A stretch of 64,000 bases of DNA from a bacterium. Lineage in GTDB: Bacteria > Patescibacteriota > Saccharimonadia > Saccharimonadales > UBA4665. Below the pieces are notes generated by a model. It was given only the letters and a program-made list of their open reading frames with translations, was not told where the DNA came from and did not search any database. Location: the NCBI GenBank assembly GCA_037139575.1, contig JBAXGD010000002.1, forward strand, positions 66-64,065, read 5' to 3'. Positions 1-33,791 of the stretch are shown in pieces (the first letter of the stretch is position 1; every line of letters starts with the position of its first letter). Both the position numbers and the translations under genes were made by a program.

Positions 1-251
1 AGAAACTTCAGTTTAGCTAAGGCCCAAACTTCAGTTGGCTGTTCTCTGCCCCATGGAAACGCGAAGAATCCTGTAAAGAGGGATATGGGAAGAAAGACAA
101 AAAGCAGAAAGCTTGCATGTTTGATATATACGATGTAGCTTAGGTAAAGAAAACCTGCTGTCACACAGGCGAAAATAAACTGAACTGCAGAAAGAGGGCC
201 AATTAATTTGTCCTCTGCCTCTATGTCTTGAATTACTTTATATGTTGCCAT
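1..251 (-). CDS. PrgI-family (VirB3-like) T4SS membrane protein, N-terminal part; the gene continues past the window edge
   Basis: Not in the ORF track because it is open at the edge. A reverse-strand ATG at 251-249 reads MATYKVIQDIEAEDKLIGPLSAVQFIFACVTAGFLYLSYIVYIKHASFLLFVFLPISLFTGFFAFPWGREQPTEVWALAKLKF with no stop down to position 1. The YKVxxDxExEDKLxGPxSxxQF opening followed by two hydrophobic helices is typical of PrgI-family proteins. It starts 7 nt after the stop of the VirB6-like gene. Confidence 0.5.
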   Translation of the reverse strand, partial: MATYKVIQDIEAEDKLIGPLSAVQFIFACVTAGFLYLSYIVYIKHASFLLFVFLPISLFTGFFAFPWGREQPTEVWALAKLKF

Positions 252-257
252 AATTAA

Positions 258-2564
258 CTAAGGTGCCGGTAACCTCGCTGTGGCCACCGCATTAGCATAA
301 TCTGCATTACCAGGAGTAGTAGCCCAGGCCATATATGGATTCACACCTCCTCCCAGTCCAGTTACTCTTGTGTTAATATCATCAAGTGCTTGCTGGGCTG
401 AAGTTCTTTGATCCGGAGATGCTGTTGGACTGTTGATGACTCCGTTCAGTTCAGTTATGGTTCTTGCAAGCACAGGGAATGCTAAGGGATCGGCGAGAGC
501 AGCATTAACAGCGTCCTGTCCTTGAGCTATATAAGCAGACCCCCTGTTATTGGCATATGCATTTCTGTCTTGTCTGTTAATTCCAGCGGTAGCATTATAG
601 CCCTCATCAGTGTTGTTTAGATGACCAAATCCTGCAGCACCTAGTACTCCTTTTGCAACAATAAGTTTTTGACTAGCATTTCCAAAATTGGGGTCACCCT
701 CATCGAGCTGTAGTCTCCCGGATGCTGCATCTACTGTTGTTCCGCAACCAGAAGCTCTTGCAGCTTCACGAACCAATTTGTCGTGTACTGCTCCACCTTC
801 ATATCTGCCTCGCAAATTCGCCAACTGTGCCGTGGCAGCATCTCTATTAGCAACAGTGTCGGTTCGATCAAAAACAGTTCTTCCGTTTTGCTGTACTGTT
901 CGGCAGCCAGTGGCATCAGCCGCCATTTGCGTCCAATTATCAACCTCTGCCTCAGAAGCTGAGCCGTATCCGTATGCTGCTTCAACATTTTGAGTTCGGA
1001 ATACTTCACCCATCCCCGCAGTCTGCCTAATTTGCCTGGCGGCTGCGACTGAAGAAGCGCCCCTGCCGCCGTCTCTTGCAGCTATTTCTGCTAATTCAGC
1101 CTCACCTTGTTCGCGCGTTATTTGACGACTAGCCATTGCAGCAAGAACCATCCCTGCTTCATTATAGTTAGCATTTCCTCTGTTGGCTGCGTTAATAGGA
1201 TTGTTTGCTATTTGAGCCGCAGCATGGGCCGAAGTCATAGCCGCTTTCCTTTCTTCGACTGCAACACTTGCAGCATCAGCAGCTTCTGCTCGAGTACCAC
1301 CGCTTCTTCTGGAGGATCTATAAGCCCTTAATCTTCTAGAGTATGAGCCAACTGTTAAGTTTGAATTTTCTCGTTCGTTATTCATATTGGCTCTAGCCCT
1401 ATTTATTCGACTATTCGGATCATTCCTGTCTCCTTGAATTCCATGAGTGAGCCTATTACCCATAGTTCTCACCCCATTGGCGACGTTTCCTATTACGCCT
1501 CCGGCCATCCTAAAACCAAAAGGAATTAGGAAAAGAGGAGCTGCGATAGCAACAATAGCCATCAACTTTGTTCCGCCGAGCGTACTTGTTGCTCCAAGGT
1601 GACTAAATATTATTCCCATAACTTGAGACATGCATATAAGAAGAACGATTACTGGATAAACCACAAGAGTTCTTAGTAGAAGATTCCACCACCTCTTAAA
1701 CAAGGCTTCAGTGTTTGGTAGGCAGTATAGAGCAAATGCGATTGGCGATGTCATCACCAAAAGAACAAGTAATCCTTGTCTTACCATTAAGGTTATTAAA
1801 ACTCCAAGTATTGCAATTAGAACCGGCACCACAACAGCCAGCACCAGATATAGCCCCACTGAAGCGAATAGGTTCGCCGTTAAAAGGCCTGCTAACCCCG
1901 CAAGGGTAACAGCACCAGCTACTGCGGCAGTTCCACCCGTAATGGCTACTGTGAAGAGAGAAGATGTAGTTCCCCCTATGTCTAATTTCCATGCATCGCC
2001 GAAGGGTGACTTTATAAGATTATAAAGCCCGGCCCCTAAAATATTAAATACATCTTCAAGGACAGCAACAATATATATAGATAAGTTGATCAATATGACC
2101 GCAACAATAACCCTCGGCAGCATTTTTTTTATCGTATAGTTCGCAACCGCTCCTCCGCCGGCTATCTCTACTATAATTGCTATCAGAAGTGCAACTATAA
2201 GGACTAAATTCCCATATATTCTAAAACTAGACCACACCTGAAAAGTACAGCCAGTAGTGGTTTGCTGATTACAGTTTCCTGAAAAAGGAATTATAGGAGT
2301 TTTTAGTAACGCAAATACAAAGTTTTCAATTTCTTTTTCGCCATTAACTACACCATTAATTACAGGACACATAACCCAGGTAAGTGGATTCCAGTTGCTT
2401 CCACCATCACAGGGGATTGAATCATCCGCAGCCAATATGACACTATTCGGAATACTTATAGTAGCTGCTGAAGTTTTTTGTTGAGGTGCAATAACAAGAA
2501 AATACGATAGAAACAAAATAATTGTCATTATTGCTGAAATTGATTTAAATTTTTTTAAAGCCAT
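258..2564 (-). CDS. Polytopic membrane protein, TrbL/VirB6-like N-terminal half with a ~390-aa hydrophilic C-terminal extension
   Basis: 768-aa ORF. It has an N-terminal signal/anchor (MALKKFKSISAIMTIILFLSYFLVIAPQQKTSA), a Cys-containing ectodomain, about 7-8 hydrophobic helices (residues ~115-370), then an Ala/Gly/Asn/Arg-rich soluble tail. It is immediately followed by the PrgI-like gene and faces the pilin array. Confidence 0.55.
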   Translation of the reverse strand: MALKKFKSISAIMTIILFLSYFLVIAPQQKTSAATISIPNSVILAADDSIPCDGGSNWNPLTWVMCPVINGVVNGEKEIENFVFALLKTPIIPFSGNCNQQTTTGCTFQVWSSFRIYGNLVLIVALLIAIIVEIAGGGAVANYTIKKMLPRVIVAVILINLSIYIVAVLEDVFNILGAGLYNLIKSPFGDAWKLDIGGTTSSLFTVAITGGTAAVAGAVTLAGLAGLLTANLFASVGLYLVLAVVVPVLIAILGVLITLMVRQGLLVLLVMTSPIAFALYCLPNTEALFKRWWNLLLRTLVVYPVIVLLICMSQVMGIIFSHLGATSTLGGTKLMAIVAIAAPLFLIPFGFRMAGGVIGNVANGVRTMGNRLTHGIQGDRNDPNSRINRARANMNNERENSNLTVGSYSRRLRAYRSSRRSGGTRAEAADAASVAVEERKAAMTSAHAAAQIANNPINAANRGNANYNEAGMVLAAMASRQITREQGEAELAEIAARDGGRGASSVAAARQIRQTAGMGEVFRTQNVEAAYGYGSASEAEVDNWTQMAADATGCRTVQQNGRTVFDRTDTVANRDAATAQLANLRGRYEGGAVHDKLVREAARASGCGTTVDAASGRLQLDEGDPNFGNASQKLIVAKGVLGAAGFGHLNNTDEGYNATAGINRQDRNAYANNRGSAYIAQGQDAVNAALADPLAFPVLARTITELNGVINSPTASPDQRTSAQQALDDINTRVTGLGGGVNPYMAWATTPGNADYANAVATARLPAP

Positions 2565-2634
2565 TTACTTAAATTCTATACCATAACCATTGTTTTTTTA
2601 AGACTTAATAAATAAACTTGCTTAACCTGTTTTG

Positions 2635-2663
2635 TTGATTTAACTAAATCTTATATATATAGT
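2635..2663 (+). promoter_or_regulatory. Putative sigma70-type promoter of the pilin-like gene array
   Basis: TTGATT (2635-2640), 17-nt spacer, TATAGT (2658-2663), 8 nt before the ATG at 2672, in the divergent intergenic region. Confidence 0.35.
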
Positions 2664-2671
2664 ATCAATAA

Positions 2672-3169
2672 ATGAAGCATTTAAATAAATACAAAATACA
2701 AAAAAATAAGCCACTTTTGGCCGCAATACTAGTGATGGCTAGCATTGTTACCATATCGGCCATTTCAGTAGATAATGCATATGCTCGTGGCATACCTCAC
2801 CAATTATTTACCACTACTCAATCTAATACTAATTCTTGCCAACCTTCAAATCCCAGCGGTGCACCAAAGTGCTGTGGTGAAGGCGGAAATGCCGTTGAAA
2901 CTTCTATAGATCTTGGCTGTACTGGCAAGGGTAATCCAATACTAGATATGTTATTTGCTGCAATAAGATTCTTATCAGCGGGAGTAGGAGTTGTGGTTGT
3001 CTTCTCGACCATTCTCGCAGGTATTCAATACACCACATCCAGAGACAATCCAGAATCTACGCAAAAAGCTAAAGGAAGATTGGTCTCCAACGTCATAGCT
3101 TTGGTCGTTTTTGTATTTGCGTTTTCGCTTCTAAACTTCCTAATCCCAGGAGGGTTCTTTAACGGATGA
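2672..3169 (+). CDS. T4SS pilin-like protein, paralog 1 (TrbC/VirB2-like two-helix hairpin)
   Basis: Signal peptide ending NAYA, a variable segment with 4 Cys, then a C-terminal hairpin (LSAGVGVVVVFSTILAGIQYTTSRDNPESTQKAKGRLVSNVIALVVFVFAF) that aligns with the five downstream ORFs. Its TGA stop overlaps the next ATG. Confidence 0.7.
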   Translation: MKHLNKYKIQKNKPLLAAILVMASIVTISAISVDNAYARGIPHQLFTTTQSNTNSCQPSNPSGAPKCCGEGGNAVETSIDLGCTGKGNPILDMLFAAIRFLSAGVGVVVVFSTILAGIQYTTSRDNPESTQKAKGRLVSNVIALVVFVFAFSLLNFLIPGGFFNG

Positions 3170-3528
3170 TAGCTCACATATTTAACATTTTTGCATCAGA
3201 CTGCGCTTTCAAAGGAGGAGCGTTTCTAACTCTGCCCCATTGGTATCAATATTTAGATGGAAGTTCCGCAGGCGGTGCTTGCGTGCCGGTAATACATAAG
3301 CTTACTGATATATGGCTAATTTTACTTGCGGTAATAGACATGCTTCTTCAGCTGGTAGCATTCATAGCAATTATTATTGTTATTTATGGGGGTGTACAGC
3401 TTCTAAGCAGTCAGGGACAACCAGATAAGGTTGCTAGGGCTAGGACAACTATCATAAACGCCCTTGTGGGAGTTGCTATTTCCATCAGCGCCGCCGGAAT
3501 GATTGCATTCTTAGTGGGGCAGCTATGA
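3166..3528 (+). CDS. T4SS pilin-like protein, paralog 2 (no obvious cleavable signal peptide)
   Basis: Two Cys (C13, C39), then a hairpin (LVAFIAIIIVIYGGVQLLSSQGQPDKVARARTTIINALVGVAISISAAG). It has ATGA overlaps with both neighbours, suggesting translational coupling. Confidence 0.65.
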   Translation: MIAHIFNIFASDCAFKGGAFLTLPHWYQYLDGSSAGGACVPVIHKLTDIWLILLAVIDMLLQLVAFIAIIIVIYGGVQLLSSQGQPDKVARARTTIINALVGVAISISAAGMIAFLVGQL

Positions 3529-3851
3529 TTAGTTTGCTCAGGCAATTTGCAGCTAATAGTAGCAGGGTTAATATTCCTGGAAATCAGTGCAGTGGAACCT
3601 GTAGCGACACTGGACTGCCCGGAAGTGCAGTTACAAACGGGACTATCTCTAATCTCCTTCAAATTGCTTTTGGTATTATCGGTGCCGTCGCAGTACTTTA
3701 TATTGTTATAGCTGCACTTCAATTAATTACATCAGGAGGCAACCCTGAATCTGCTAAGAAGGCCAGAGAAACTATAATATACGCTGTCATTGGTTTAATT
3801 GTCGCAGTTAGTGCCGAAGCAATCGTAACCTTCTTTTTAAATAACCTATAG
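3525..3851 (+). CDS. T4SS pilin-like protein, paralog 3
   Basis: CSGTC pair, then a hairpin (FGIIGAVAVLYIVIAALQLITSGGNPESAKKARETIIYAVIGLIVAVSAEAIV). Confidence 0.65.
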   Translation: MISLLRQFAANSSRVNIPGNQCSGTCSDTGLPGSAVTNGTISNLLQIAFGIIGAVAVLYIVIAALQLITSGGNPESAKKARETIIYAVIGLIVAVSAEAIVTFFLNNL

Positions 3852-3853
3852 AT

Positions 3854-4243
3854 ATGAAAAAAATACTCACATCACTACTGCTACTAATCACAATAATAAG
3901 CTTTTCTCAGAGTGTTTTTGCAGCAAGCTATAGTGGCCTGAAAGATACGTGTAATAGCGCGACTTATCAGCGTGGCAGTAAGCCAAGCGTATGTAAGGAC
4001 GCCAATGCCTCGTCTTCAAATCCAGCCTATGGAATATTCAAATCGGTACTCAATATACTTTCCTATGCAGTCGGAGCTATATCTGTGATTGTTATAATCA
4101 TAGCTGGTCTAAGGTTAGTTTTGTCTGGAGGCGATCCACAAACACTGACTTCGGCTAGGAATGCCATAATATATGCCGCCATTGGAATAGTGGTGTTTGC
4201 TCTTTCCCAGTCTATAGTGGTGTTTGCTCTAAAAAATGTTTAA
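3854..4243 (+). CDS. T4SS pilin-like protein, paralog 4
   Basis: Signal peptide (MKKILTSLLLLITIISFSQSVFA), C-x13-C pair, hairpin (LSYAVGAISVIVIIIAGLRLVLSGGDPQTLTSARNAIIYAAIGIVVFALSQSIV). Confidence 0.7.
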   Translation: MKKILTSLLLLITIISFSQSVFAASYSGLKDTCNSATYQRGSKPSVCKDANASSSNPAYGIFKSVLNILSYAVGAISVIVIIIAGLRLVLSGGDPQTLTSARNAIIYAAIGIVVFALSQSIVVFALKNV

Positions 4244-4255
4244 TGAAGGGATAAT

Positions 4256-4729
4256 ATGAATAAAAAGATAAAGATAAAACAAATATTTGCGACTACTCTT
4301 GTAATGTTGTTAATTATTGGGGGTATTTTTGGTTCCTCTGTGTTTGCTTATAGCGGCAGTTCAAACGAGAATAATTCCTCTGTTTTATTTGCTGCTGCAC
4401 CTCCAGCTGGCAACTCTGCATTTTCGGGCTCAAAGGATTCGGTTTGTAACGGTGTGGGCCTTGGAGGAAATGCATGTTCGTCAGACTCAAATGGATCAAG
4501 CAGTATAAATAAGATAATAACTAACGTTCTAAACATACTTTCCTATATTGTGGGAATTGCTGCAGTATTTGTGCTAATTATAAGCGGAATTAGGATGATT
4601 GCTTCCGGAGGAGACTCGAATTCATTTAATAGCGCAAAAAATGGAATCTTATACGCAATTATTGGCCTGGTGATTGTAGCTACTTCACAGATAATTGTCC
4701 AATATGTATTAAAAAATGCAACTAGTTAA
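4256..4729 (+). CDS. T4SS pilin-like protein, paralog 5
   Basis: Signal peptide, Ser/Asn/Gly-rich variable region with a C-x9-C pair, hairpin (LSYIVGIAAVFVLIISGIRMIASGGDSNSFNSAKNGILYAIIGLVIVATSQIIV). Confidence 0.7.
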   Translation: MNKKIKIKQIFATTLVMLLIIGGIFGSSVFAYSGSSNENNSSVLFAAAPPAGNSAFSGSKDSVCNGVGLGGNACSSDSNGSSSINKIITNVLNILSYIVGIAAVFVLIISGIRMIASGGDSNSFNSAKNGILYAIIGLVIVATSQIIVQYVLKNATS

Positions 4730-4805
4730 AAGCTATTGTTTAAATAAATTTTTTATTGTTATATAATGCTAGTAAGAAATTTTAAGTAATCGAAAGGTAA
4801 TATAA

Positions 4806-5255
4806 ATGTTTAAAAAATTAAAAAAGAACGTATACATGTTGTCAGCAGCTATTGCGCTACTGATGCCGCTTGGCTTTGGCGTAGCAACAACATATGCAGC
4901 AAGTGGTGGAGCTTTTGATGTCCGAAACAGCTTACAAAACCAGGGTTGTGCAGGATCACAGGCTCAGGTTGGCGGTAGTTCTGGTGCCTGTACAGGAAAC
5001 CAGGCCGCAGATAGCTTAAGCACACTTGTAAAAAATATTCTTAATGTTTTTTCATGGGTTGTGGGAATAGTCGCAGTAATTATGATTATTATTGCAGGAT
5101 TCAGGTATATCGTGTCTGGCGGTGAATCTGGCGGCGTAACTGGAGCTAAGAACGCAATTTTATTCGCAATAGTCGGTATTGTTATCGTAGCTATTGCACA
5201 GATTATCGTGCAGTTCGTTCTTACCAAGGCAACCGCAACCTCAGTTGGCCAATAA
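4806..5255 (+). CDS. T4SS pilin-like protein, paralog 6
   Basis: Signal peptide ending TTYA, C-x13-C pair, hairpin (FSWVVGIVAVIMIIIAGFRYIVSGGESGGVTGAKNAILFAIVGIVIVAIAQIIV). It is separated from paralog 5 by a 76-nt AT-rich spacer, so it may have its own promoter. Confidence 0.7.
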   Translation: MFKKLKKNVYMLSAAIALLMPLGFGVATTYAASGGAFDVRNSLQNQGCAGSQAQVGGSSGACTGNQAADSLSTLVKNILNVFSWVVGIVAVIMIIIAGFRYIVSGGESGGVTGAKNAILFAIVGIVIVAIAQIIVQFVLTKATATSVGQ

Positions 5256-5320: not shown

Positions 5321-5794
5321 CTATAAGATCTGAATCTTCTTAACAGTATCTTGTTTGATTTTATCAAAGCTAATTGTAAGGACTCCGTCCTTAAGCTGTG
5401 CCTGAATATCATCTTCCTTTACGGGAACAGGAAGCGCTAGGCTTCTTGAGAATTCACCCCAGTAACATTCTTGGACGAAGTAGTTTTCAACATCATCCTC
5501 GTTACCAGCAGAAAGAGTTCCTCTAATACTTAGAGTATTATCTGAAATACTAACATCAAGATCGCTCTTGTTTACGCCAGCAGTTCTTGCCTTTACGACT
5601 AATTTTTCACGGGTCTCATAGACGTCTACTGCCAGTTGTCCTGGTAATGCGTCTTCTTCGTCCCATTCTTCATTGATAGCTTCTGGTGCCCCACTAGGTT
5701 GAGTTTCTGCCGATGAATCATCGTCGCCTAAAAATGCTGCAGTTAGCTCGTCCTCTTCCATCAAAAGGTCATCGTCGCGTTTATTTCGCGCCAT
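5321..5794 (-). CDS. Hsp20/alpha-crystallin family small heat-shock protein
   Basis: Alpha-crystallin domain (LAVDVYETREKLVVKARTAGVNKSDLDVSISDNTLSIRGT...GEFSRSLALPVPVKEDDIQAQLKDGVLTISFDK). The ORF opens at 5809, but GGAGGG (reverse complement of 5802-5807) sits 7 nt before the ATG at 5794 (MARNKRDD), so I prefer that start. Confidence 0.85.
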   Translation of the reverse strand: MARNKRDDDLLMEEDELTAAFLGDDDSSAETQPSGAPEAINEEWDEEDALPGQLAVDVYETREKLVVKARTAGVNKSDLDVSISDNTLSIRGTLSAGNEDDVENYFVQECYWGEFSRSLALPVPVKEDDIQAQLKDGVLTISFDKIKQDTVKKIQIL

Positions 5795-5853
5795 ATTGTT
5801 ACCCTCCATTGATTAATCTTTTTTCGGCTATACTATTTTTTGTATTAACTATC

Positions 5854-5886
5854 AGTATAGTCACATTGCATTCTTCTTGCAAGAAG
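5854..5886 (-). promoter_or_regulatory. Putative hsp20 promoter with a 14-bp perfect palindrome over the -35 box
   Basis: On the minus strand: TTGCAA (5882-5877), 17 nt, TATACT (5859-5854). The palindrome CTTCTTGCAAGAAG at 5873-5886 is centred on the -35 hexamer. Confidence 0.4.
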
Positions 5887-5982
5887 CCAGGCTTAGATTT
5901 ACAACACAATAATTACAACAACTCCCATTTTATAATTTTATAGATGAAAAATTTAAATTTCTTGATATAATCAATCTGTATT

Positions 5983-6072
5983 GGAAGGGTCGCATAGCGG
6001 TCGAGTGCACCTGTCTTGAAAACAGGAGTACCGGAAACGGTACCGTGGGTTCGAATCCCACCCCTTCCGCCA
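5983..6072 (+). tRNA. tRNA-Ser (anticodon TGA), long variable arm, CCA encoded
   Basis: Hand fold: acceptor GGAAGGG/CCCTTCC, anticodon stem-loop CTGTC-TTGAAAA-CAGG region with loop cTTGAaa, long extra arm (GTACCGGAAACGGTAC), T arm GTGGG-TTCGAAT-CCCAC, discriminator G plus CCA. Confidence 0.85.
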
Positions 6073-6081
6073 ATAGACCGC

Positions 6082-6174
6082 GGAGAGATACCCAAGTGGC
6101 TGAAGGGGACGGTTTGCTAAATCGTTAGGGGGGCGAAAGTTCCCGCGAGGGTTCGAATCCCTCTCTCTCCGCCA
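6082..6174 (+). tRNA. tRNA-Ser (anticodon GCT), long variable arm, CCA encoded
   Basis: Acceptor GGAGAGA/TCTCTCC, anticodon arm ACGGT-TTGCTAA-ATCGT, long extra arm, T arm GAGGG-TTCGAAT-CCCTC, G plus CCA. It lies 9 nt downstream of the preceding tRNA. Confidence 0.85.
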
Positions 6175-11238: not shown

Positions 11239-12717
11239 TTATTGCAAAGAAGCTGTTAACCTTGCAATGTTATCTAGTAGTATTTTGCGCCTAGACCTCT
11301 TGCTCCAACTTTCCAAGCTAATTTGTTTGGAATTTTCTAAATAACTTCTGGACAGATTTTCAAGTTTTTCCGCAATATCTTTATTGTAAATAATTACGGT
11401 TATTTCTAGATCAAGTTCGAATGACCTTATGTCTAAATTGCTTGACCCGACAGTGACTATTTCACTATCGATTACTATAAACTTGGAATGTAGCAGAACT
11501 GGCTTGTTGTATGTAAAAATTTTAACCCCAGCTTTTAGGAGTATTTCGTAAAATGATCTTTGAGCATGCGCTACCAGCCATTGATCTTCAGCTTCGGAAT
11601 TTATTAAAATTATTTCGACACCTCTTTTTGCTGCACTAGTTATCGCCAGTAGTAGCGAATCATCAGGGACAAAATAAGGATTAACTAAAATTACCCTTTC
11701 TTTTGATGCATGAATGAGCGAAGTAAATAATTTGAGGTTATTCTCATCTTCATAACCTGGACCGCTTGGCAATATTTGAGCAATAGTCTTGCCTGGAAAT
11801 TTTATCTCTCTTTCTTGGTTTGTATACTTTTTGTAGTCGAGTAACTTGTTCGTCTCCGAAAACCAATCAGTTAGAAAAATAGCCCCCAGTTGCAAGACGG
11901 CTGGACCTTCTATTTTGACGACCAATTCATCGTAATATATGTCATCTTTACGGTGATAATTTCTCTGAACCAAATTCTGAGATCCCGAATAACCAACCTT
12001 TCCATCGATCACGACTATTTTTCGGTGATTTCTAAGATCTGGCCTAACATATCCCCTGCCCGGAAACTTTAATGGGAGCATTGGAACCGCTATTACTCCA
12101 GATGTATTCAATCTTTTCATCATTGAGCGGTAATTTGCATATTTTTTAGTCGAAAAGCTGTCAAAAAGTACTTTAACTTGAACTCCTCGATTTATTGCGG
12201 ATTCTAAAGCTTGAAAAATCGGTTCAGTAGAACCATCCATAGCTATTATGAAATATTCTAGATGAACAAATTCTTTCGCAAGATTTATATCGGCAGTAAT
12301 CGATTTAATTATAGAATCATAGTCATCGATTATTTGAATATTATTCCCGCCAAACGGAGGAAGATGGCTTAAGGATTCACTTAATTTAGCTATTTGTTCG
12401 AATTTTTCTGGAACATTCTTAATAATTTCGCCATCTTTCTGATGACCCTTCATTCCCAGAATAGTTTTCTCAATTACGTTATTTAGTGTTTTTTGGGCAT
12501 CTCTTCTAGATTTAGGTAGCTTAGGATTGCCAAGTATTAAAAAAAGCAAAAAACCAAAAGGAGGAAAAAAGAATATCAAAAGTAACCATGCCATACCTGA
12601 TGATGGTTTCCTATTTTTTGGAACAACATAAAGTGAAAGCAATCGAATTATCCATTCGCCTAGCAGCCACCAAGATCCTAAAAACTCTAAATTACTTAAA
12701 GATAATGCTGAATGCAC
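11239..12717 (-). CDS. cls: Cardiolipin synthase (phospholipase D superfamily)
   Basis: Two N-terminal TM helices and two HKD motifs: NHRKIVVIDGKVGYSGSQNL and LHSKFIVIDSEIVTVGSSNLDIRS. Confidence 0.9.
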   Translation of the reverse strand: MHSALSLSNLEFLGSWWLLGEWIIRLLSLYVVPKNRKPSSGMAWLLLIFFFPPFGFLLFLILGNPKLPKSRRDAQKTLNNVIEKTILGMKGHQKDGEIIKNVPEKFEQIAKLSESLSHLPPFGGNNIQIIDDYDSIIKSITADINLAKEFVHLEYFIIAMDGSTEPIFQALESAINRGVQVKVLFDSFSTKKYANYRSMMKRLNTSGVIAVPMLPLKFPGRGYVRPDLRNHRKIVVIDGKVGYSGSQNLVQRNYHRKDDIYYDELVVKIEGPAVLQLGAIFLTDWFSETNKLLDYKKYTNQEREIKFPGKTIAQILPSGPGYEDENNLKLFTSLIHASKERVILVNPYFVPDDSLLLAITSAAKRGVEIILINSEAEDQWLVAHAQRSFYEILLKAGVKIFTYNKPVLLHSKFIVIDSEIVTVGSSNLDIRSFELDLEITVIIYNKDIAEKLENLSRSYLENSKQISLESWSKRSRRKILLDNIARLTASLQ

Positions 12718-12769
12718 AATTATATCCCCTATTTATTCGGTTTAGGCTCAAGAGGTAATTGTATATTAT

Positions 12770-13321
12770 TTATCTATTATTATGAAGCTCAATAAGAGTT
12801 CTGGCTAAGACTATGCTCGCTGCAGAAGTGTTTCTTTGGAAATAGCCTATTGTCTCTGTAACCTCAGGATCATGATATGTTTCGCCTAGTGTGCTCGCAA
12901 AAGTAATCGCTGCCGCCTTAGTAGCAAACTTTAGTTTTGAAATATTTCTTCCATCGGATGATTCTGTTTTTGCCTTATTCCATGAGTAAGTCAATTTTTG
13001 AAATGAGTGTATTGGCTGAACTATCTTCAAACGATGTTCGAATTCCTCACCTGATTCATCTTTAAAACGAACAGTATCAGACTCTTTAGTAGGAGCAATA
13101 TCACTAGCCATGAAAATCATGGCCTTGAATTTATCCATAGTATCATCGCTAAGGGCATTAAAATGCTCAATAGATAATCTGTCGACAATAACTGCTAGAT
13201 TTCGAACCAATAATTCTGATGAGCTGTGAACATATATGTCAGGCTCGGAGGCAATTTCATCTCCAATCCTTACGTTTGCGTCCATTAGCTCTTGAACGTC
13301 GCTTTTATAAGTCCCATGCAT
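12770..13321 (-). CDS. Hypothetical protein
   Basis: 183-aa ORF with no recognisable motif. Confidence 0.55.
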   Translation of the reverse strand: MHGTYKSDVQELMDANVRIGDEIASEPDIYVHSSSELLVRNLAVIVDRLSIEHFNALSDDTMDKFKAMIFMASDIAPTKESDTVRFKDESGEEFEHRLKIVQPIHSFQKLTYSWNKAKTESSDGRNISKLKFATKAAAITFASTLGETYHDPEVTETIGYFQRNTSAASIVLARTLIELHNNR

Positions 13322-13520
13322 AATAGTATTATATAATAATCATAGAGATAAGTAAATAGCTATTAGTGATTAAGATTTATAAAGGTCCAGTTCAAGGAAT
13401 GGGAGTCCAAGTTTTTTTGGTATTTACTCGAATTTCTATTTTTAAGGATAATTATCTTAATATCATAAACCCAATAAACGGTTAAAAATATATGGTGCAG
13501 CATTATGGCTGAGGTTAGAA

Positions 13521-14171
13521 CTATATTTCTATTGTTTCATAATTCTGAAGTGGTATAAAAGTAACACCAAACTTCTCCATTACTTCAGGCAGCTTAGCGT
13601 ATATAGCACCTCGAGCTTCTTCATTCCAATGCCAGTCATGCAATGGAACAACGGTTTTTGGGCGGTCAGACATAGCTTCAATCATTTTCGTAAAGCCTAC
13701 AACTGCGCCCCACGGACCACCATTGACGGCAGCGGCAAGTATTCGCGCTCCATTTGAGCTATTCAAAGTCTGGCAGTCGCCACTGACAAGTATCTCATCA
13801 AAAATAACATAGCTAGTGTGTAGTGGCTGGTTATCAAACCATGGTGAAAGATCAGCGTGTTTTGACTCGATAAATCTTATGTTTTGATCGTCACTGCTAG
13901 TCCGGCCGCTAATATTAATATCTTTTAAGCTATCTGCAGTTTCCTGAGTACCATACCACACTGCCCTCGGCGAGGCTTGTTTTACCGCATTGGCAAAATC
14001 AACACTGAAATGGTCAGGATGATTATGGGTCACCACGACCGCAGAAATTCCAGAAAGTTCAAAGTGTTTTACTTTTTCATCTTGCCAGCTGTACACCCCG
14101 GGATCAACAAGTATTTTTGTGCCGTCTTTCTCCACGAGTAAGCATGAATGGACTAATTTAGTTAATTTCAT
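13521..14171 (-). CDS. MBL-fold metallo-hydrolase
   Basis: VVVTHNHPDHF (HxHxDH) motif near the N-terminus, with later His/Asp residues (SKHAD, PLHDWH). Confidence 0.8.
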   Translation of the reverse strand: MKLTKLVHSCLLVEKDGTKILVDPGVYSWQDEKVKHFELSGISAVVVTHNHPDHFSVDFANAVKQASPRAVWYGTQETADSLKDINISGRTSSDDQNIRFIESKHADLSPWFDNQPLHTSYVIFDEILVSGDCQTLNSSNGARILAAAVNGGPWGAVVGFTKMIEAMSDRPKTVVPLHDWHWNEEARGAIYAKLPEVMEKFGVTFIPLQNYETIEI

Positions 14172-14229
14172 ACTTTAATAATACCAAACAAAAAACACTT
14201 CTGTCGAAGTGCTTTAAGTATAAGCTATT

Positions 14230-14306
<77 letters not shown>

Positions 14307-14377
14307 GCTAAGAAGTAATGCTAGCATATTTCACCCTAGTTATCCAGAGTACTTCCCTGCTACAATGTCATATTAAT

Positions 14378-14467
14378 GGAGAGGTGGCCGAGTGGTTGAA
14401 GGCGCTGCTCTCGAAAAGCAGTATATCGGAAACGGTATCGAGGGTTCGAATCCCTCCCTCTCCGCCA
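14378..14467 (+). tRNA. tRNA-Ser (anticodon CGA), long variable arm, CCA encoded
   Basis: Acceptor GGAGAGG/CCTCTCC, anticodon arm CTGCT-CTCGAAA-AGCAG, long extra arm, T arm GAGGG-TTCGAAT-CCCTC, G plus CCA. Confidence 0.85.
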
Positions 14468-14535
14468 ATTATATAAATATAAAAATACTATTTTTAGCTG
14501 ATATAATGCTAATGTAATATTCAAAAATAAAAATT

Positions 14536-17500
14536 ATGAGCAAAGAAGCAATTCCTCAACTATCAAGCGAATCCAAAGAACTTATTTCTTCATTGCCTCC
14601 CAATCTTCGAGCCACGTCGGAAGAAAGAATTTTGGCATTATCGCATACTGCCCTACATTCCAATGATATTTTAGTTGGTACCACGCCTATACCTCAAGAA
14701 AAGCTCTCTGAAGAACATTTGCCCCATATAGATAGAGTCACCGGTATCATGAAATCTTCTTCAGAAATTCTTGGAGTTGCATATGGTGAAATCGATGATG
14801 ATGGCGCTAGCTTTGAAGACCTGGCAGACAAAGCAATAGAAATTGCTATCAGAAGTGCCAAGGAAGCCAAAGAAAGTCAAGATGATGAATCGAGCGTGGT
14901 TTTTCTGGAATCACTTTTAGCAATAACCACTCTCAAGGAAAAAACGAGTAATGAATACTCTAAAAAATTAGCTAGAGAAATAATATCTCAAGGCCTATCT
15001 ACAGAACTTATTAAGGCTACACACAACTCTTTCGGGATTGTTGCGAATAATGATGGCAAGCTTACTCCGCTGAATTCGGTTGCGCAGACTAGCACAGATC
15101 TTTTAAGGGCAACTTCGCCCTTTGATTTCAATTATGATTTTTCTGAAATCGAAACTAAAGAGCCAGACACTGATCTTAGCAAGCTTGGCTGTGGAGACCT
15201 AACTGTTTTGGCTAGATTAGCCGACAAAAATCCGTCCTTAAGTCTTGTAAGTAAAGATGTCATGGTTTTAGCTGTTCGTAAAATGAAAATTGAACGAGAA
15301 GTTGATCTTGACGATTTTACGACAGCACTGATAGCTGCTGATGAAATTATTGGAAAAAGCGACGAACTAGAATCTTCATTGTCTTCACTTAGGGCTAGAC
15401 GCAAATCAGGAAATGCGAATTATAGAAACAATGATCCAGACACTTTCAGATTAGATTCAGTATTATTTATTCTAGTCCAGCAAGGCCATGATTACCTTGC
15501 GAGAGGGCTATTATCATCATCGCCAAATGAAGCGGATAATTTCGAATCATATGTCAATTCGCATGGAATTAGCGATGAGTATACGACCGAAACATTGAGA
15601 AAAATCGCCGATATGAGAAACGAAAAAGAACTAGAACTGGTCGCTTCTATGAAAAATAATGCAGCAAACGATGAAACCATTGCATGGATCATAGGATCCG
15701 CCTACGATCCAGATTCAGCAGCGGGAATAAAGGCTAATTTTTGGGCTCAGCTAGAGAAAAATTCTTCATTACGCGAAGTATTGCTTTCGGACAGTAATAA
15801 TTTGCTAGAAACTTCAGAAGCTTTGACCAAGATGAATGATTTAGGCTTAGAAAAATATAGTCATATTCTCATATCTATTGTCAATAATATAGGTGATGAA
15901 GAAATTCAAAATAAATTCCTAACTTCTTTTAAGGAAGCAGAAGCAATGCTATCCAAAATCAATGAAAACGGTGCCATTAACTCAAATATGGATAGTATAT
16001 TAGGACGGCTTGCTTCCTTTGAGGATCCGGTTATGGCAATTCGAGCCGCCAAGGACTTATTTGGTGAAGATGAATATTTGAAAAATATATATAACCTACA
16101 GTCTCTTGTGCATCCAGACTATTTAGCATATGCAGAAATTATAGCCTTTAGCCAGAACAATATAGATGCCTTGATTAATGTCAGGAATTATATTTCAGAA
16201 ACAGGTCTCGATCCAAGTTTTTTGAGTTTTACTGCAAAGACTATTTCAAAATCAGACGATCCCATTGCTCGTTCTAAAATTATCATCAGCTCACTTGAAA
16301 TTGCGAAATCAGTCTTTCAAGAGGATCAAAACATTATTTACCAGATAATCGATAAAGAAAATCTATTTGAAATTAGTAAGGCACTATCGGAGATTAATGC
16401 TGCGATAATATCCACTAACGAGTCACTTAGACAAAGCCTAAATAGGAAGATCTTTGATTCGTTGGAGCCTGAAAAAACTGCACAATTAATGATTAAAACT
16501 CAGAATGAAATTATTGGACAGAACATAACTCTAGATGAGATGAAAGATAAAGATTTTTTTGATGCAATGATTGTTGTAGCTAATGCTGATGACCCCAAAG
16601 AAGTTGTAAAATTTTGCAGTAATTGGAAAGTAAAGAAAGAGGGTGAAGTTGCATATGGAAAATTTTGGAGTACTGCGGCAGAAGGTGGTTTAGAAAAACT
16701 CGACCCATTATTGCTTCCATCGCTTAAAGACTATCCCGAGTTGAGCGCACGCTTAAATGCAATTGGAATCTCTCCAGAATTAGCCGAAGATATATTCAAT
16801 TCTTGGAATACTAAATCTGAACTAAATAGGTTGCTCTACAATGACGACAGAACTATCTCAGAAACGAAGCCCGAAGACATTCAGTACGCCCTACCAATGC
16901 AAGCAGAGAGATTAATACCACAAATAGAGGCACTAGAAAAACATATCTCCGAATATGGCTTTGAGGAAACAAAGAAAATTATCGACATTTTTGGCATATA
17001 TCATTTTTCGAGATATCCAGACGGCATTCTTCACAAACAACTAAGACAATGGGAAAACTCAGAAGCTCCTATTAAGAACATCGTAGTTACGGCCAAGTCT
17101 GACTGGAATGGGGCTCTAGATAGCGCAGGGAAAACTTATGTGAATGGTATAGAGGAAGACGGACTTTTTTATTTTGAAGTAAATGATAAAATTCAGCTGG
17201 CTAAGGTTGCAGTAAGCGTTGGCAATAGAGAGCGTTCTATGGGTCGAAATCCAGAACAAGAAAGCCAATTAAAAAACTTTAAAATTAATGCTCATGCAAG
17301 CCCTAGCGGAATATTATTTGGGGTAAATGGGGAAAGGTTGAGTGTAGAGGATTATCTCGGAGAGCCTTTAAGTGGCTCGAAAGCCAATACCTATAAGAAG
17401 CACTTAGGGAGTAACTATAGAGTTATTCTAGAGGCTTGTTCGACTGCTGGTGAGGTTAAGGACGGCAAAAATATTGCTGAATCAATTAGTGATGGTCATG

Positions 17501-17610
17501 AAGTTAGAGTAGATGGAACTAGCGAATCAAGTTATGGCGCAATAATAATTGATCCTGATGGAAATGTTAGGTTTAATGGTGGTAAAGTTAGGGCTATTGT
17601 CTACGAATAA
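14536..17610 (+). CDS. Large (1024 aa) acidic, mostly helical protein of unknown function with a C-terminal caspase/CHAT-like (clan CD-like) His-Cys module
   Basis: Uninterrupted 3-kb ORF with no signal peptide. The last ~200 aa alternate predicted strands and loops: NIVVTAKSDWNGA ... FKINAHASPSGILF (His920, codon 17293-17295) ... YRVILEACSTAGE (Cys968, codon 17437-17439). The His-to-Cys spacing is 48 residues. Confidence 0.8.
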   Translation: MSKEAIPQLSSESKELISSLPPNLRATSEERILALSHTALHSNDILVGTTPIPQEKLSEEHLPHIDRVTGIMKSSSEILGVAYGEIDDDGASFEDLADKAIEIAIRSAKEAKESQDDESSVVFLESLLAITTLKEKTSNEYSKKLAREIISQGLSTELIKATHNSFGIVANNDGKLTPLNSVAQTSTDLLRATSPFDFNYDFSEIETKEPDTDLSKLGCGDLTVLARLADKNPSLSLVSKDVMVLAVRKMKIEREVDLDDFTTALIAADEIIGKSDELESSLSSLRARRKSGNANYRNNDPDTFRLDSVLFILVQQGHDYLARGLLSSSPNEADNFESYVNSHGISDEYTTETLRKIADMRNEKELELVASMKNNAANDETIAWIIGSAYDPDSAAGIKANFWAQLEKNSSLREVLLSDSNNLLETSEALTKMNDLGLEKYSHILISIVNNIGDEEIQNKFLTSFKEAEAMLSKINENGAINSNMDSILGRLASFEDPVMAIRAAKDLFGEDEYLKNIYNLQSLVHPDYLAYAEIIAFSQNNIDALINVRNYISETGLDPSFLSFTAKTISKSDDPIARSKIIISSLEIAKSVFQEDQNIIYQIIDKENLFEISKALSEINAAIISTNESLRQSLNRKIFDSLEPEKTAQLMIKTQNEIIGQNITLDEMKDKDFFDAMIVVANADDPKEVVKFCSNWKVKKEGEVAYGKFWSTAAEGGLEKLDPLLLPSLKDYPELSARLNAIGISPELAEDIFNSWNTKSELNRLLYNDDRTISETKPEDIQYALPMQAERLIPQIEALEKHISEYGFEETKKIIDIFGIYHFSRYPDGILHKQLRQWENSEAPIKNIVVTAKSDWNGALDSAGKTYVNGIEEDGLFYFEVNDKIQLAKVAVSVGNRERSMGRNPEQESQLKNFKINAHASPSGILFGVNGERLSVEDYLGEPLSGSKANTYKKHLGSNYRVILEACSTAGEVKDGKNIAESISDGHEVRVDGTSESSYGAIIIDPDGNVRFNGGKVRAIVYE

Positions 17611-31814: not shown

Positions 31815-33791
31815 ATGCAAACACCCGGAAGCTCATTTCTACACGAGAGAAACCCCAATCTCCACGCTTCGCAAGAAGTAGAAGGTGTGGTGGGCTATTT
31901 GCGTGCTGGCGGTGAGCATATCCCAAATGAGCCAGCAGATAAGATCTCTGCTCATTTAGGCTTTCTTGCTCATAGAGAATACGTCAATGACGGCATACTA
32001 ACTGGTGACCAATCGAGTATTGATCGCCAGATTGAAGCCAATGTCATTAAGGCCGAAAATGTACCGGATGGCTACTTTGAACTACAGCGTCGTATAGCTC
32101 GTGAACAAGGACACGGTGACGTTACTATTACCCAAAATATGCGTGAGCAAATGACTGAAGCAGTTCAGGCTGATCAGCGAGTCGGACTTGGCAAATGGGT
32201 TGAGTACCTCGGTGGCGAAGATGGTGGCTATCCGGACTGGTTTAAGTCCTACACATTTTCTTCTGTCACGAAACTCGGCAATTACGATAAGGAAAAGGGC
32301 GAATTCCTGAAGCGTAGTCGTGGAACTACAGCCGCTTATCCGGAACTTAACCGTGAGGCTTTAGCCTATGTCTACGATGTGCTCAATAAATCAAGAGTGC
32401 AGCACGAGCCAGTTGATGGTGGTGCCAATAACGAACAGCTCCAAAAGTTACTGCAAGGTGCCAATTTTGGTAAACTCTATGCACATGCCGTTCTTGAGAT
32501 TGCTCCAACTTCACCGGAATTGCTCAAAGATACCAGAGGCTCTTGGACAAAGTTCAACCAGAGTTCAGACCCAAGAACAGCCCGAAGGCTCGCTGGTTCG
32601 TTGCAGGGGCATGGTACTGGCTGGTGCACAGCGGGCGAATCCACCGCAAACATACAGCTTCAGGGTGGCGACTTTTACGTCTATTACACTCGTGATGAAG
32701 ACGGAAAAGAGACTGTTCCGCGCGTAGCAATTCGTATGCAAGAAGGTTCAGTAGCCGAAGTGCGTGGTATCAATACTGCCCAAGAGCTTGAGTCCGAAAT
32801 GGCAGATATTACGTCTGAGCGTCTGCAAGATCTACCTGGGGGCGAAGAGTATATTCGAAGAGCCCAGGACATGAAACACCTGACTGCCATAGACAAGAAG
32901 ATAACAGCCGATCCTACTACTGAACTTACTGGCGATGAGCTACGATTTCTCTATGAACTGGACCATGACATCTCAGGATTTGGTTACAAACGTGATCCAC
33001 GCATTGACGAGATAAGGGCTAAACGAGAAGGCCGGGATAAGCCGGAACTTGCCCGCATACTCCCTGAAACCATTCGCGACCAGCTAAGAGGTGCGTTTAT
33101 GGCTTACAGCACTGTTGCAGGCCAACTAAAAACCGAGCGTCGCTTTCGCAAGCCAGAATCTGGCGTATCGGCACAAGAGCTTGAGCACCTGTTTGCTCTC
33201 AAAGATAAGGAATGGCAAGAAAACGGCGTCTACGATCACTTAGTGGAAGAACTGATTGCCAATGGTGCTCGCTATAACCTAGTAGCCACGCCTAATGTGG
33301 AAGCAACCGAAAAACAAATTGTTGCTTTGGCTGAAGCGTTTGGTAAAGACCAGCCTTACGAAACCTACGTGTACGATGAGCTATATCGTAAAGGCAGATA
33401 CACAGGCCGTGAATTTTCTGGTAACGGCGGTAGCGACCCAGTTCGCCTCAGCCTCATTCCATCCCGTCGTGATGCAGTTTTGAGCGGTAAAACGGTTGAA
33501 ACACAGGTGCGAATGCTGAGGGAGCAGCAAACTGGTAAGCCTAACCTCAATTTGCGTGTCCCAAGTGTTCTTGACGCTGTTACCTACTGGTACACGCTAC
33601 GAGCACAGGGCGACAAACTAGCCGACAGTAGCGCATTCGACAAAACCTATATCCGACACTTCGACCTAGAACCTAAGGCGGTCGCCGGGTGGTCGTTCGT
33701 TCCGTACTCCTACGTGCTCTACGGTGGCACGCCGAGCTTGTACCGCTCGGGTGTCGAGGACGACGATGGCGCTCGCGTGTCGGTGGGGTAA
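31815..33791 (+). CDS. 658-aa island protein of unknown function with a single cysteine in a GHGTGWCTAGES segment (possible PcfJ-like core)
   Basis: Long uninterrupted ORF with GC-rich codon usage unlike its neighbours. No signal peptide, TM helix, P-loop or nuclease motif recognised. Cys271 (32625-32627) is the only Cys. Confidence 0.8.
   Translation: MQTPGSSFLHERNPNLHASQEVEGVVGYLRAGGEHIPNEPADKISAHLGFLAHREYVNDGILTGDQSSIDRQIEANVIKAENVPDGYFELQRRIAREQGHGDVTITQNMREQMTEAVQADQRVGLGKWVEYLGGEDGGYPDWFKSYTFSSVTKLGNYDKEKGEFLKRSRGTTAAYPELNREALAYVYDVLNKSRVQHEPVDGGANNEQLQKLLQGANFGKLYAHAVLEIAPTSPELLKDTRGSWTKFNQSSDPRTARRLAGSLQGHGTGWCTAGESTANIQLQGGDFYVYYTRDEDGKETVPRVAIRMQEGSVAEVRGINTAQELESEMADITSERLQDLPGGEEYIRRAQDMKHLTAIDKKITADPTTELTGDELRFLYELDHDISGFGYKRDPRIDEIRAKREGRDKPELARILPETIRDQLRGAFMAYSTVAGQLKTERRFRKPESGVSAQELEHLFALKDKEWQENGVYDHLVEELIANGARYNLVATPNVEATEKQIVALAEAFGKDQPYETYVYDELYRKGRYTGREFSGNGGSDPVRLSLIPSRRDAVLSGKTVETQVRMLREQQTGKPNLNLRVPSVLDAVTYWYTLRAQGDKLADSSAFDKTYIRHFDLEPKAVAGWSFVPYSYVLYGGTPSLYRSGVEDDDGARVSVG

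Follow-up and report, generated by a model that had tools for sequence, protein, structure and literature searches.

A type IV secretion-like locus with six pilin-like genes in the class Saccharimonadia

Saccharibacteria are tiny bacteria that live on other bacteria. Here we analyzed a type IV secretion system (T4SS) locus at positions 1-5255 of a 64,000-nucleotide stretch from a member of the Saccharimonadales (assembly GCA_037139575.1, contig JBAXGD010000002.1, positions 66 to 64,065 of the forward strand), which as a whole is referred to as the window. The closest described system is that of Candidatus Southlakia epibionticum. Wang et al. (2023, Cell; PMC10633639) reported that the cluster SEML1_0006-0019 of this species is essential in transposon sequencing (Tn-seq) and has a Gram-positive-like composition with a succession of subunits predicted to be pilins, without a coupling protein or relaxase. 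Their tables comprise a lysozyme, a large unknown protein, VirB4, a 293-aa unknown protein, PrgI and two VirB6-like proteins around an NTF2-like protein, followed by six PF18895 pilins, each of which was scored essential, and then by Hsp20 and a tRNA-Ser gene. Moreover, the structure-based annotation of these pilin orthologues is TrbC/VirB2 (PMC10633639). Saccharibacteria need this T4SS to grow on their host, and it is a leading candidate for how such reduced epibionts exploit their hosts. In a survey of Patescibacteria, Quinonero-Coronel et al. (2025, Microb Genom; PMC12102498) described, in the sections on which we draw here and below, an MPF-FATA-related VirB4 clade accompanied by TrsD, PrgI and VirB6 and by almost no relaxases. 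The same sections report 441 VirB2 arrays, each with 2-11 genes at a within-array identity of ~25%, which are most frequent in Saccharimonadia and Microgenomatia, and propose that the VirB2 paralogues confer versatility towards different hosts. A 2025 FEMS review covers the same Saccharibacterial T4SS and agrees with the survey. As to its role, the literature speculates on the delivery of effectors and on the uptake of nutrients.

We estimate a probability of roughly 0.9 that positions 1-5255 are the right-hand half of a chromosomal T4SS which is related to class MPF-FATA and conserved across the class Saccharimonadia. The locus has its relatives among the MPF-FATA conjugation machines of Gram-positive bacteria, and it is a further member of the published Saccharibacterial T4SS and no new kind of system. 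An earlier reading of this DNA from its letters alone, here called the original prediction, had seen in this region the edge of a type IV secretion-like locus and expected a VirB4-type ATPase just left of position 1. All open reading frames (ORFs) that it described in 1-5255 exist. The exact sequence of the 768-aa membrane protein encoded near the window edge was found on the Joint Genome Institute (JGI) metagenome contig Ga0194061_1002053 (L001), which is 100% identical to window 1-2807 and reaches 8.4 kb further left. There the expected ATPase is present, its start lying ~1.6 kb past the window edge. Together, the window and L001 encode a VirB6-like protein, PrgI/VirB3, a TrsD-like protein, VirB4, an 895-aa protein and a peptidoglycan hydrolase as well as a divergent operon of six pilin genes, named p1 to p6 in the order of transcription (Table 1). 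The call of a type IV secretion-like locus is thereby borne out by the profile matches and by the VirB4 to its left.

Table 1. Features of the locus and its surroundings. Positions are those of the window unless L001 is given.
Feature	Position	Strand	Evidence or remark
PrgI/VirB3-like gene	1-251	-	N-terminal 83 codons; PF12666
Extended VirB6-like polytopic membrane protein, 768 aa (putative)	258-2564	-	architecture, position, sub-threshold fold signal
Divergent intergenic region, 107 bp, AT-rich	2565-2671		promoter-like consensus match
Pilin p1, 165 aa	2672-3169	+	PF18895 33 bits
Pilin p2, 120 aa	3166-3528	+	PF18895 26.5 bits (threshold 26.6)
Pilin p3, 108 aa	3525-3851	+	PF18895 58.4 bits; TrbC E 4.1e-5
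Pilin p4, 129 aa	3854-4243	+	PF18895 42.2 bits; TrbC E 2.9e-5
Pilin p5, 157 aa	4256-4729	+	PF18895 51.3 bits; TrbC 28.5 bits (threshold 27.9)
p5-p6 gap, 76 nt	4730-4805	+	promoter-like element and Shine-Dalgarno sequence
Pilin p6, 149 aa	4806-5255	+	PF18895 45.5 bits; TrbC E 5e-5
Hsp20 gene	5321-5809	-	PF00011 E 3.8e-19; convergent with p6
TrsD-like protein, 269 aa	L001 3648-4457		precomputed 'TraC-like' match, position, published survey
VirB4 ATPase, 633 aa	L001 4457-6358		P-loop_TraG, AAA_10, DUF87
Unassigned envelope protein, 895 aa	L001 6366-9053 (~3.5-6.2 kb left of window position 1)		between VirB4 and hydrolase
Wall hydrolase, 662 aa	L001 9050-11038		Amidase_3 and CHAP

VirB4 is the signature protein of T4SSs. 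The ATPase matched the domains P-loop_TraG (E-value 1.5e-25), AAA_10 (1.2e-13) and DUF87, and among PDB sequences it matched the C-terminal domain of a Gram-positive VirB4 (4AG5, 1.6e-45) as well as TrwK (6e-4). This VirB4 is split, and the end of the TrsD/TraC-N-like ORF and the start of the ATPase ORF share a single base (4457). From its precomputed 'TraC-like' match, its position and the published survey, we read the 269-aa protein as a TrsD-type split N-domain of VirB4, an arrangement reported for Patescibacteria (PMC12102498) and for pGO1. In the search against PDB sequences it gave no significant match, and its match to TraC_F_IV was sub-threshold only. The minus-strand ORF that starts from the ATG at 251 and leaves the window edge begins with MATYKVIQDIEAEDKLIGPLSAVQF and reached 29.5-29.6 bits against PF12666 in Pfam, above the threshold of 27, so that the PrgI call of the original prediction was confirmed. 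At full length (L001 2569-3597) the protein comprises 342 aa, with two N-terminal membrane helices, whose hydrophobic windows start at aa 16-50 and span roughly aa 16-68, followed by a long charged tail; the TrsD-like and VirB4 genes come next. The gene for the 768-aa protein lies 6 nt upstream of PrgI, as that of PrgH does in pCF10. These 6 nt (ttaatt) separate a TAG stop from the ATG at 251, and the distance of 7 nt given originally was essentially right as a stop-to-start offset.

The weakest part of the assignment is the 768-aa protein itself, for which the architecture, the position and a fold signal below threshold point to a VirB6-like protein and whose family membership is putative. 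An N-terminal leader (aa 6-29) is followed by an 80-residue extracytoplasmic segment with four cysteines, by hydrophobic blocks at 110-180, 203-284, 292-325 and 328-358, equivalent to about 6-7 membrane helices, and by a hydrophilic C-terminal domain of 410 aa that is helical and has a predicted local distance difference test (pLDDT) score of ~90. A polytopic protein with at least 5 hydrophobic helices and a large hydrophilic domain that adjoins PrgI and VirB4 has the architecture of an 'extended VirB6' as defined in the 2025 FEMS review. Because a basic stretch follows the last membrane helix, the C-terminal domain is predicted to be cytoplasmic. Besides, these 410 residues (window 258-1400) are rich in Ala, Gly, Arg and Asn, with a local G+C raised to 0.46, and the last ~130 residues of the protein diverge quickly (31-47% identity to the nearest species representative, L002).

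The protein had no Pfam match even at E <= 1, the TrbL/VirB6 profile included, and nothing significant in NCBIfam. Of its 172 detected homologues almost all belong to Saccharibacteria/Saccharimonadales, and PF04610 (TrbL) was matched weakly by 3 of 42 (best E-value 0.001). Many homologues carry a precomputed match to PF19590, which was not used as support. A profile of 42 VirB6-like sequences searched against PDB sequences returned low-complexity coiled-coil noise from the C-terminal domain only. Modelled at full length with AlphaFold (pLDDT 78.5), the protein shows a helical membrane domain and a confident helical C-terminal domain. In Foldseek, armadillo/importin-like matches dominated for this full model, with TrwI/VirB6 of R388 as the only high-probability membrane protein. 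When an AlphaFold2 model of aa 1-420 (pLDDT 68.7) was searched, the top five PDB matches were five chains of R388 TrwI/VirB6, all of them weak (E-value 0.044-0.23, probability 0.77-0.97, template modelling (TM) score 0.32-0.35; best match 0.044, 0.97 and 0.33). Hence, the VirB6 call of the original prediction finds support in the gene position, in the weak TrbL matches of the homologues and in the TrwI fold matches, but not in a Pfam match of the protein itself.

The pilin assignment is firmer. All six small ORFs matched PF18895 (T4SS_pilin), five above 26.6 bits and p2 0.1 bit short, with independent E-values from 6.6e-6 to 7.7e-16. For p3-p6 we also found matches to PF04956 (TrbC/VirB2) with E-values of 1.8e-6 to 5e-5, p5 alone being above threshold, and in NCBIfam the mycoplasma integrative conjugative element (ICE) pilin-like family NF045849 was matched below threshold, down to an E-value of 1.7e-9. 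This agrees with the original pilin call, and the two-helix hairpin which it had noticed in all of these proteins is indeed present at the C-terminal end of each. In all six it is formed by two hydrophobic helices and a short polar loop, S-G-G-(D/N)-P...A-(K/R), in which the Ser is invariant and an invariant Ala is followed by K or R. VirB2/TrbC-type pilins are small proteins of this build, with a short basic loop between the hydrophobic helices and in most cases a cleavable leader ahead of them. Upstream of the hairpin, p1 has a signal-like leader and four cysteines, and p4, p5 and p6 each have a signal-like leader and a cysteine pair. Neither p2 nor p3 has an N-terminal signal segment; their cysteine pairs are C13/C39 and C22/C26, respectively. 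Identity of p2-p6 to p1 is 19-27%. The latter is the most divergent paralogue and also the one whose length varies most between genomes (129-328 aa), and p5 is the closest paralogue of p6 (hhalign E-value 4e-48).

For the comparison across Saccharimonadia, 80 loci encoding a homologue of the 768-aa protein were taken from GTDB species representatives, and their ORFs were searched with a hidden Markov model (HMM) of the six window pilins. Exactly six pilin genes were found in 47 loci, the window included. Hsp20 and the VirB6-like gene delimit 49 arrays on both sides; 46 of these contain six pilin genes, two contain five and one contains seven. Six pilin genes are the norm of Saccharimonadia, and six are also published for S. 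epibionticum; the copy number that the original prediction called unusually high is the usual one. The order Hsp20, six pilins, VirB6-like, PrgI, TrsD-like and VirB4 is kept in about 40 Saccharimonadia loci, and VirB4 is usually followed by a large protein and a hydrolase where the fetched flank extends that far. Thus, the pilins are encoded together with homologues of VirB3, VirB4 and VirB6 in the window and L001 as well as in about 40 related loci. The recurrence in dozens of related genomes and the Pfam E-values of the pilins place this arrangement far beyond chance.

Similar to the locus described here, that of S. epibionticum is chromosomal, has no relaxase nearby and contains a hydrolase, a large unknown protein, VirB4, a TrsD-like protein, PrgI, a VirB6-like protein and six divergent PF18895 pilins in the same order, with Hsp20 and tRNA-Ser after the pilins. 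It differs in having two VirB6-like genes (SEML1_0011 and 0013) around an NTF2-like, VirB8-like gene, whereas we found a single VirB6-like gene. Moreover, SEML1_0006 combines a glucosaminidase with a phage-tail lysozyme, while the hydrolase of our locus, with Amidase_3 and CHAP, is judged from its domains to be a non-orthologous replacement at the same operon position. The system of S. epibionticum was tested experimentally, whereas the one analyzed here is known from its genes alone. The clade surveyed by Quinonero-Coronel et al. (PMC12102498) shares with it, in the sections considered, an MPF-FATA-like VirB4, a TrsD adjoining VirB4, PrgI/VirB3, VirB6 and the lack of a relaxase. The within-array identity reported there (~25%) also resembles our values relative to p1.

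Positional orthology, defined as the best BLASTP match in each other genome falling on the same array position, was observed for p1 and p2 in 2162 of 2162 comparisons each, for p3 in 2128/2162, for p4 in 1598/2162, for p5 in 1269/2162 (890 fell on p6) and for p6 in 2117/2162. Profile-profile scores gave the nesting p1(p2(p3(p4(p5,p6)))), which tracks the gene order. Judged from these comparisons, the six pilins are ancient positional orthologues that make up six distinct groups in a fixed order. Such fixed orthologues argue against interchangeable variable copies. This weakens the idea of the original prediction that the array provides variable surface filaments, and likewise its parallel to Rickettsiales, as the pilins do not form a variable repertoire. 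Systems of Rickettsiales, Anaplasma and Bartonella do resemble the locus in that these bacteria are host-dependent and carry several VirB2 and extended VirB6 paralogues, a comparison made in the cited sections of PMC12102498. However, those systems are of the diderm MPF-T type, which has an outer-membrane core, and their paralogues often lie scattered and are regarded as serving antigenic variation, whereas the genes of our locus form a single operon whose number, order and orthology are fixed across the class.

The anatomy of the pilins is likewise tied to their position. An N-terminal hydrophobic leader was present in 44-46 of 47 genomes for p1, p4, p5 and p6 but only in 4/47 for p2 and 1/47 for p3. 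The cysteine pair upstream of the hairpin occurred in 37-45 of 47 genomes for p2-p6, and a conserved pair is usual at each of the six positions. Across genomes, the mean pairwise identity of the hairpin was highest in p6 (62%, compared with 42-57% at the other positions), and the N-terminal parts of the pilins showed 25-42% identity.

The spacing of the genes sets p6 apart as well. In the window p1/p2 and p2/p3 overlap by 4 nt and the next two junctions measure 2 nt and 12 nt, while 76 nt precede p6. This p5-p6 gap has a median of 72 nt in the 47 genomes, in which the other four junctions overlap or abut. In the window this gap holds TTTAAA-17-TATAAT (4739-4767) together with GAAAGG as the Shine-Dalgarno sequence of p6. 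Among the 47 genomes, T[AG]nTATAA was found in this gap in 39 (median -38 from the start codon), TTG(A)-N17-23-TATAA in 42 and a Shine-Dalgarno-like motif in 41; upstream of the other five pilin genes T[AG]nTATAA occurred in 0-3/47. Ahead of p1, TTGATT-17-TATAGT lies within window 2635-2672 as a consensus match and ends 8 nt before the ATG, and no Shine-Dalgarno sequence was seen. A Shine-Dalgarno-like motif upstream of p1 was found in 0/47 genomes, and a -10-like hexamer 4-12 nt upstream of its start in 16/47 (with longest-ORF starts). With modest support from these counts, the p1-p5 transcript may be leaderless or nearly so. Where the surveyed paralogues were proposed to serve host versatility in the cited sections of PMC12102498, our locus has fixed orthologues, position-specific leaders and a promoter-like element dedicated to the last gene. 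In the parts of the published accounts of Saccharibacterial and Patescibacteria T4SS considered here, we did not find a description of the leaderless p2 and p3, the cysteine pair, or the promoter and hairpin conservation of p6.

A further comparison is offered by the plasmid pCF10, which has the same order of membrane platform (PrgH), PrgI, VirB4 and wall hydrolase. PrgF of pCF10 is a two-helix VirB2-like protein of 75 aa, and a December 2025 preprint reported it to be essential for conjugation. It aligned end to end with the pooled profile of 282 pilin sequences (69 of 75 residues; hhalign probability 66%, E-value 5.5e-5), and PrgG showed no similarity to the pilin profile in hhalign. Going by this alignment, the pilins may have arrived together with the Gram-positive-type machine, which is a weak hint because membrane hairpins are compositionally biased. 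In contrast to our locus, pCF10 has one pilin-like gene instead of six, its PrgF lacks a leader and a cysteine-bearing N-terminal extension, its VirB4 is a single protein, and it has a coupling protein, a relaxase and adhesins.

We tentatively propose that the pilins constitute a fixed heteromeric kit across Saccharimonadia, with p6 as the bulk subunit and low-copy p1-p5 that prime, cap or form the tip, and with descent from a PrgF-like VirB2 and not from diderm systems. This proposal is a possibility that we would not put at even odds. The pilins would insert in the membrane as two-helix hairpins, four via a cleavable leader and two without, and their N-terminal segments with the cysteine pair would face outwards. 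By analogy with VirB-type systems, VirB4, anchored by PrgI/VirB3, would pull the pilins from the membrane and polymerise them on the VirB6-like platform, and the hydrolase would open the cell wall. The comparative data suggest that p6 may supply the bulk of the filament, because its hairpin is the most conserved one and it has a promoter-like element of its own as well as a strong ribosome-binding site. On the same grounds p1-p5, encoded on one tightly coupled transcript, may form a priming or tip complex of low abundance. The filament would bridge to the host bacterium and carry proteins out or host molecules in; it would not carry DNA by conjugation, because neither a relaxase nor a coupling protein accompanies the locus among the ORFs scanned. 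If the proposed kit holds true, it would be the first VirB2-type pilus of ordered specialised subunits, for which the minor-pilin complexes of type IV pili offer a parallel. The array analysis predicts six non-interchangeable subunits, a separately transcribed major p6, two leaderless subunits and a conserved extracellular cysteine pair. As the system itself is published, the residual value of the locus lies in this testable sub-structure of the pilin array.

Several points weigh against this interpretation. The VirB6 call depends on sub-threshold signals: the fold search with aa 1-420 returned nothing at E <= 0.001, and hhalign detected no similarity between the VirB6-like profile and PrgH of pCF10, in which the two systems differ. 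In the AT-rich region promoter-like sites were no commoner than in shuffled sequence (13 vs 11.0 +/- 3.4), and it is from promoter-like motifs and conservation only that one major (p6) and five minor subunits are suggested. Polar effects could explain why every pilin gene was scored essential in Tn-seq. VirB2-type pilins polymerise into an extracellular helical filament that contains lipid, and no filament has been reported for any Saccharibacterium in the literature considered. Furthermore, a 2024 PNAS perspective calls the role of the Saccharibacterial T4SS 'completely unknown', and another part of the genome could encode a coupling protein.

The same machine might work as an importer like ComB of Helicobacter pylori, taking up DNA, nucleotides or other host molecules via the pilin filament, which we consider unlikely. 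In its favour, relaxase and coupling protein are missing nearby and the T4SS is essential for growth. Besides, Saccharibacteria cannot make nucleotides, the competence system of S. epibionticum is dispensable, and it has been suggested in the literature that the T4SS supplies nucleotides. Nevertheless, ComB-type systems have no known six-pilin array and pilus assembly machines driven by VirB4 are typically exporters. The sequence itself does not separate import from export.

That the locus belongs to an integrated conjugative element whose T4SS transfers DNA between cells is close to refuted. The gene order shared with pCF10, a VirB4 closest to the Gram-positive VirB4 structure and two tRNA-Ser genes 0.7 kb beyond the pilin array would agree with such an element. 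However, the 26 largest or nearest ORFs that were scanned in the 64-kb window and the 8.4-kb extension on L001 include neither a relaxase nor a coupling protein nor an integrase, so that the relaxase and type IV coupling protein of a conjugative T4SS are both missing from these ORFs, and the only FtsK-like ATPase among them, which carries a gamma domain, is a genuine FtsK. Housekeeping genes make up the flanks, the Hsp20 and tRNA-Ser neighbours are conserved across the class and in S. epibionticum, and the G+C equals the genome background except in the Ala/Gly/Arg-rich tail of the VirB6-like gene. An integrative element, suggested by the adjacent tRNA-Ser, was rejected on synteny and since the ORFs scanned contained no mobility genes. 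Finally, that the six ORFs are an unrelated two-helix membrane family (holin-like or c-subunit-like) matched through hydrophobic composition is most improbable, for although their hairpins weakly match the F0F1 c subunit, DUF6112 and TMEM37 and PF18895 itself was largely defined from candidate-phyla genomes, the independent matches to PF04956 and NF045849, the strict linkage to VirB6-like, PrgI and VirB4 genes in every related genome, the alignment with PrgF and the structure-based TrbC/VirB2 annotation in S. epibionticum all oppose it.

To assess the rate of change, we compared the locus with L002, which has ~80-85% nucleotide identity, and with the more distant L003. Identity to L002 was 99.4% for VirB4 and for Hsp20, 95% for the TrsD-like protein, 83% for PrgI, 74% for the VirB6-like protein, where the divergence is concentrated in the N-terminal 64 residues and the last ~130, and 72-89% for the pilins. 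An accelerated evolution of the pilins was considered and rejected, as this range was judged to lie within that of the neighbouring housekeeping proteins (80-99.7%). No other gene of the locus varies nearly as much as that of the 895-aa protein, for which the profile search found no family match and whose apparent counterpart, going by position, is the essential SEML1_0007. It shares 39% identity with L002 and 59% with L003, whereas the adjacent VirB4 shares 99.4% and 92%. As the identity is lower to the nearer L002 than to the distant L003, an allelic exchange of this gene is suggested. Being the fastest-evolving component of the locus, the 895-aa protein, and not the pilins, is a likely determinant of host specificity, a candidate role drawn from sequence divergence.

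On the other side of the array, Hsp20 and then tRNA-Ser (window 5321-6174) flank the pilin genes, an arrangement shared by nearly all related loci and by S. epibionticum. The linkage of Hsp20 and the pilin operon is conserved across related loci, and the counterpart in S. epibionticum, SEML1_0020, was scored essential (PMC10633639). The other large ORFs of the window encode housekeeping proteins, namely ValRS, GroEL, ArgRS, DnaG, PolA, PNPase, RNase J, FtsK, TsaD, a Mur ligase, cardiolipin synthase, an L,D-transpeptidase and glycosyltransferases. The cumulative GC skew has its minimum at about 12000-16000, where the genes also turn from a mainly minus orientation (11239-14171) to a mainly plus one. 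This would be expected close to an origin of replication, but no dnaA was seen among the ORFs scanned. A divergent tRNA pair lies in the same region (tRNA-Arg 14230-14306 on the minus strand and tRNA-Ser 14378-14467 on the plus strand), and just right of it follows an acidic, largely helical-looking ORF of 1024 aa (14536-17610) without a Pfam match. Another ORF without a Pfam match, of 658 aa (31815-33791), lies in the most G+C-rich stretch of the window (0.49 vs a background of ~0.38) and may have been acquired from elsewhere.

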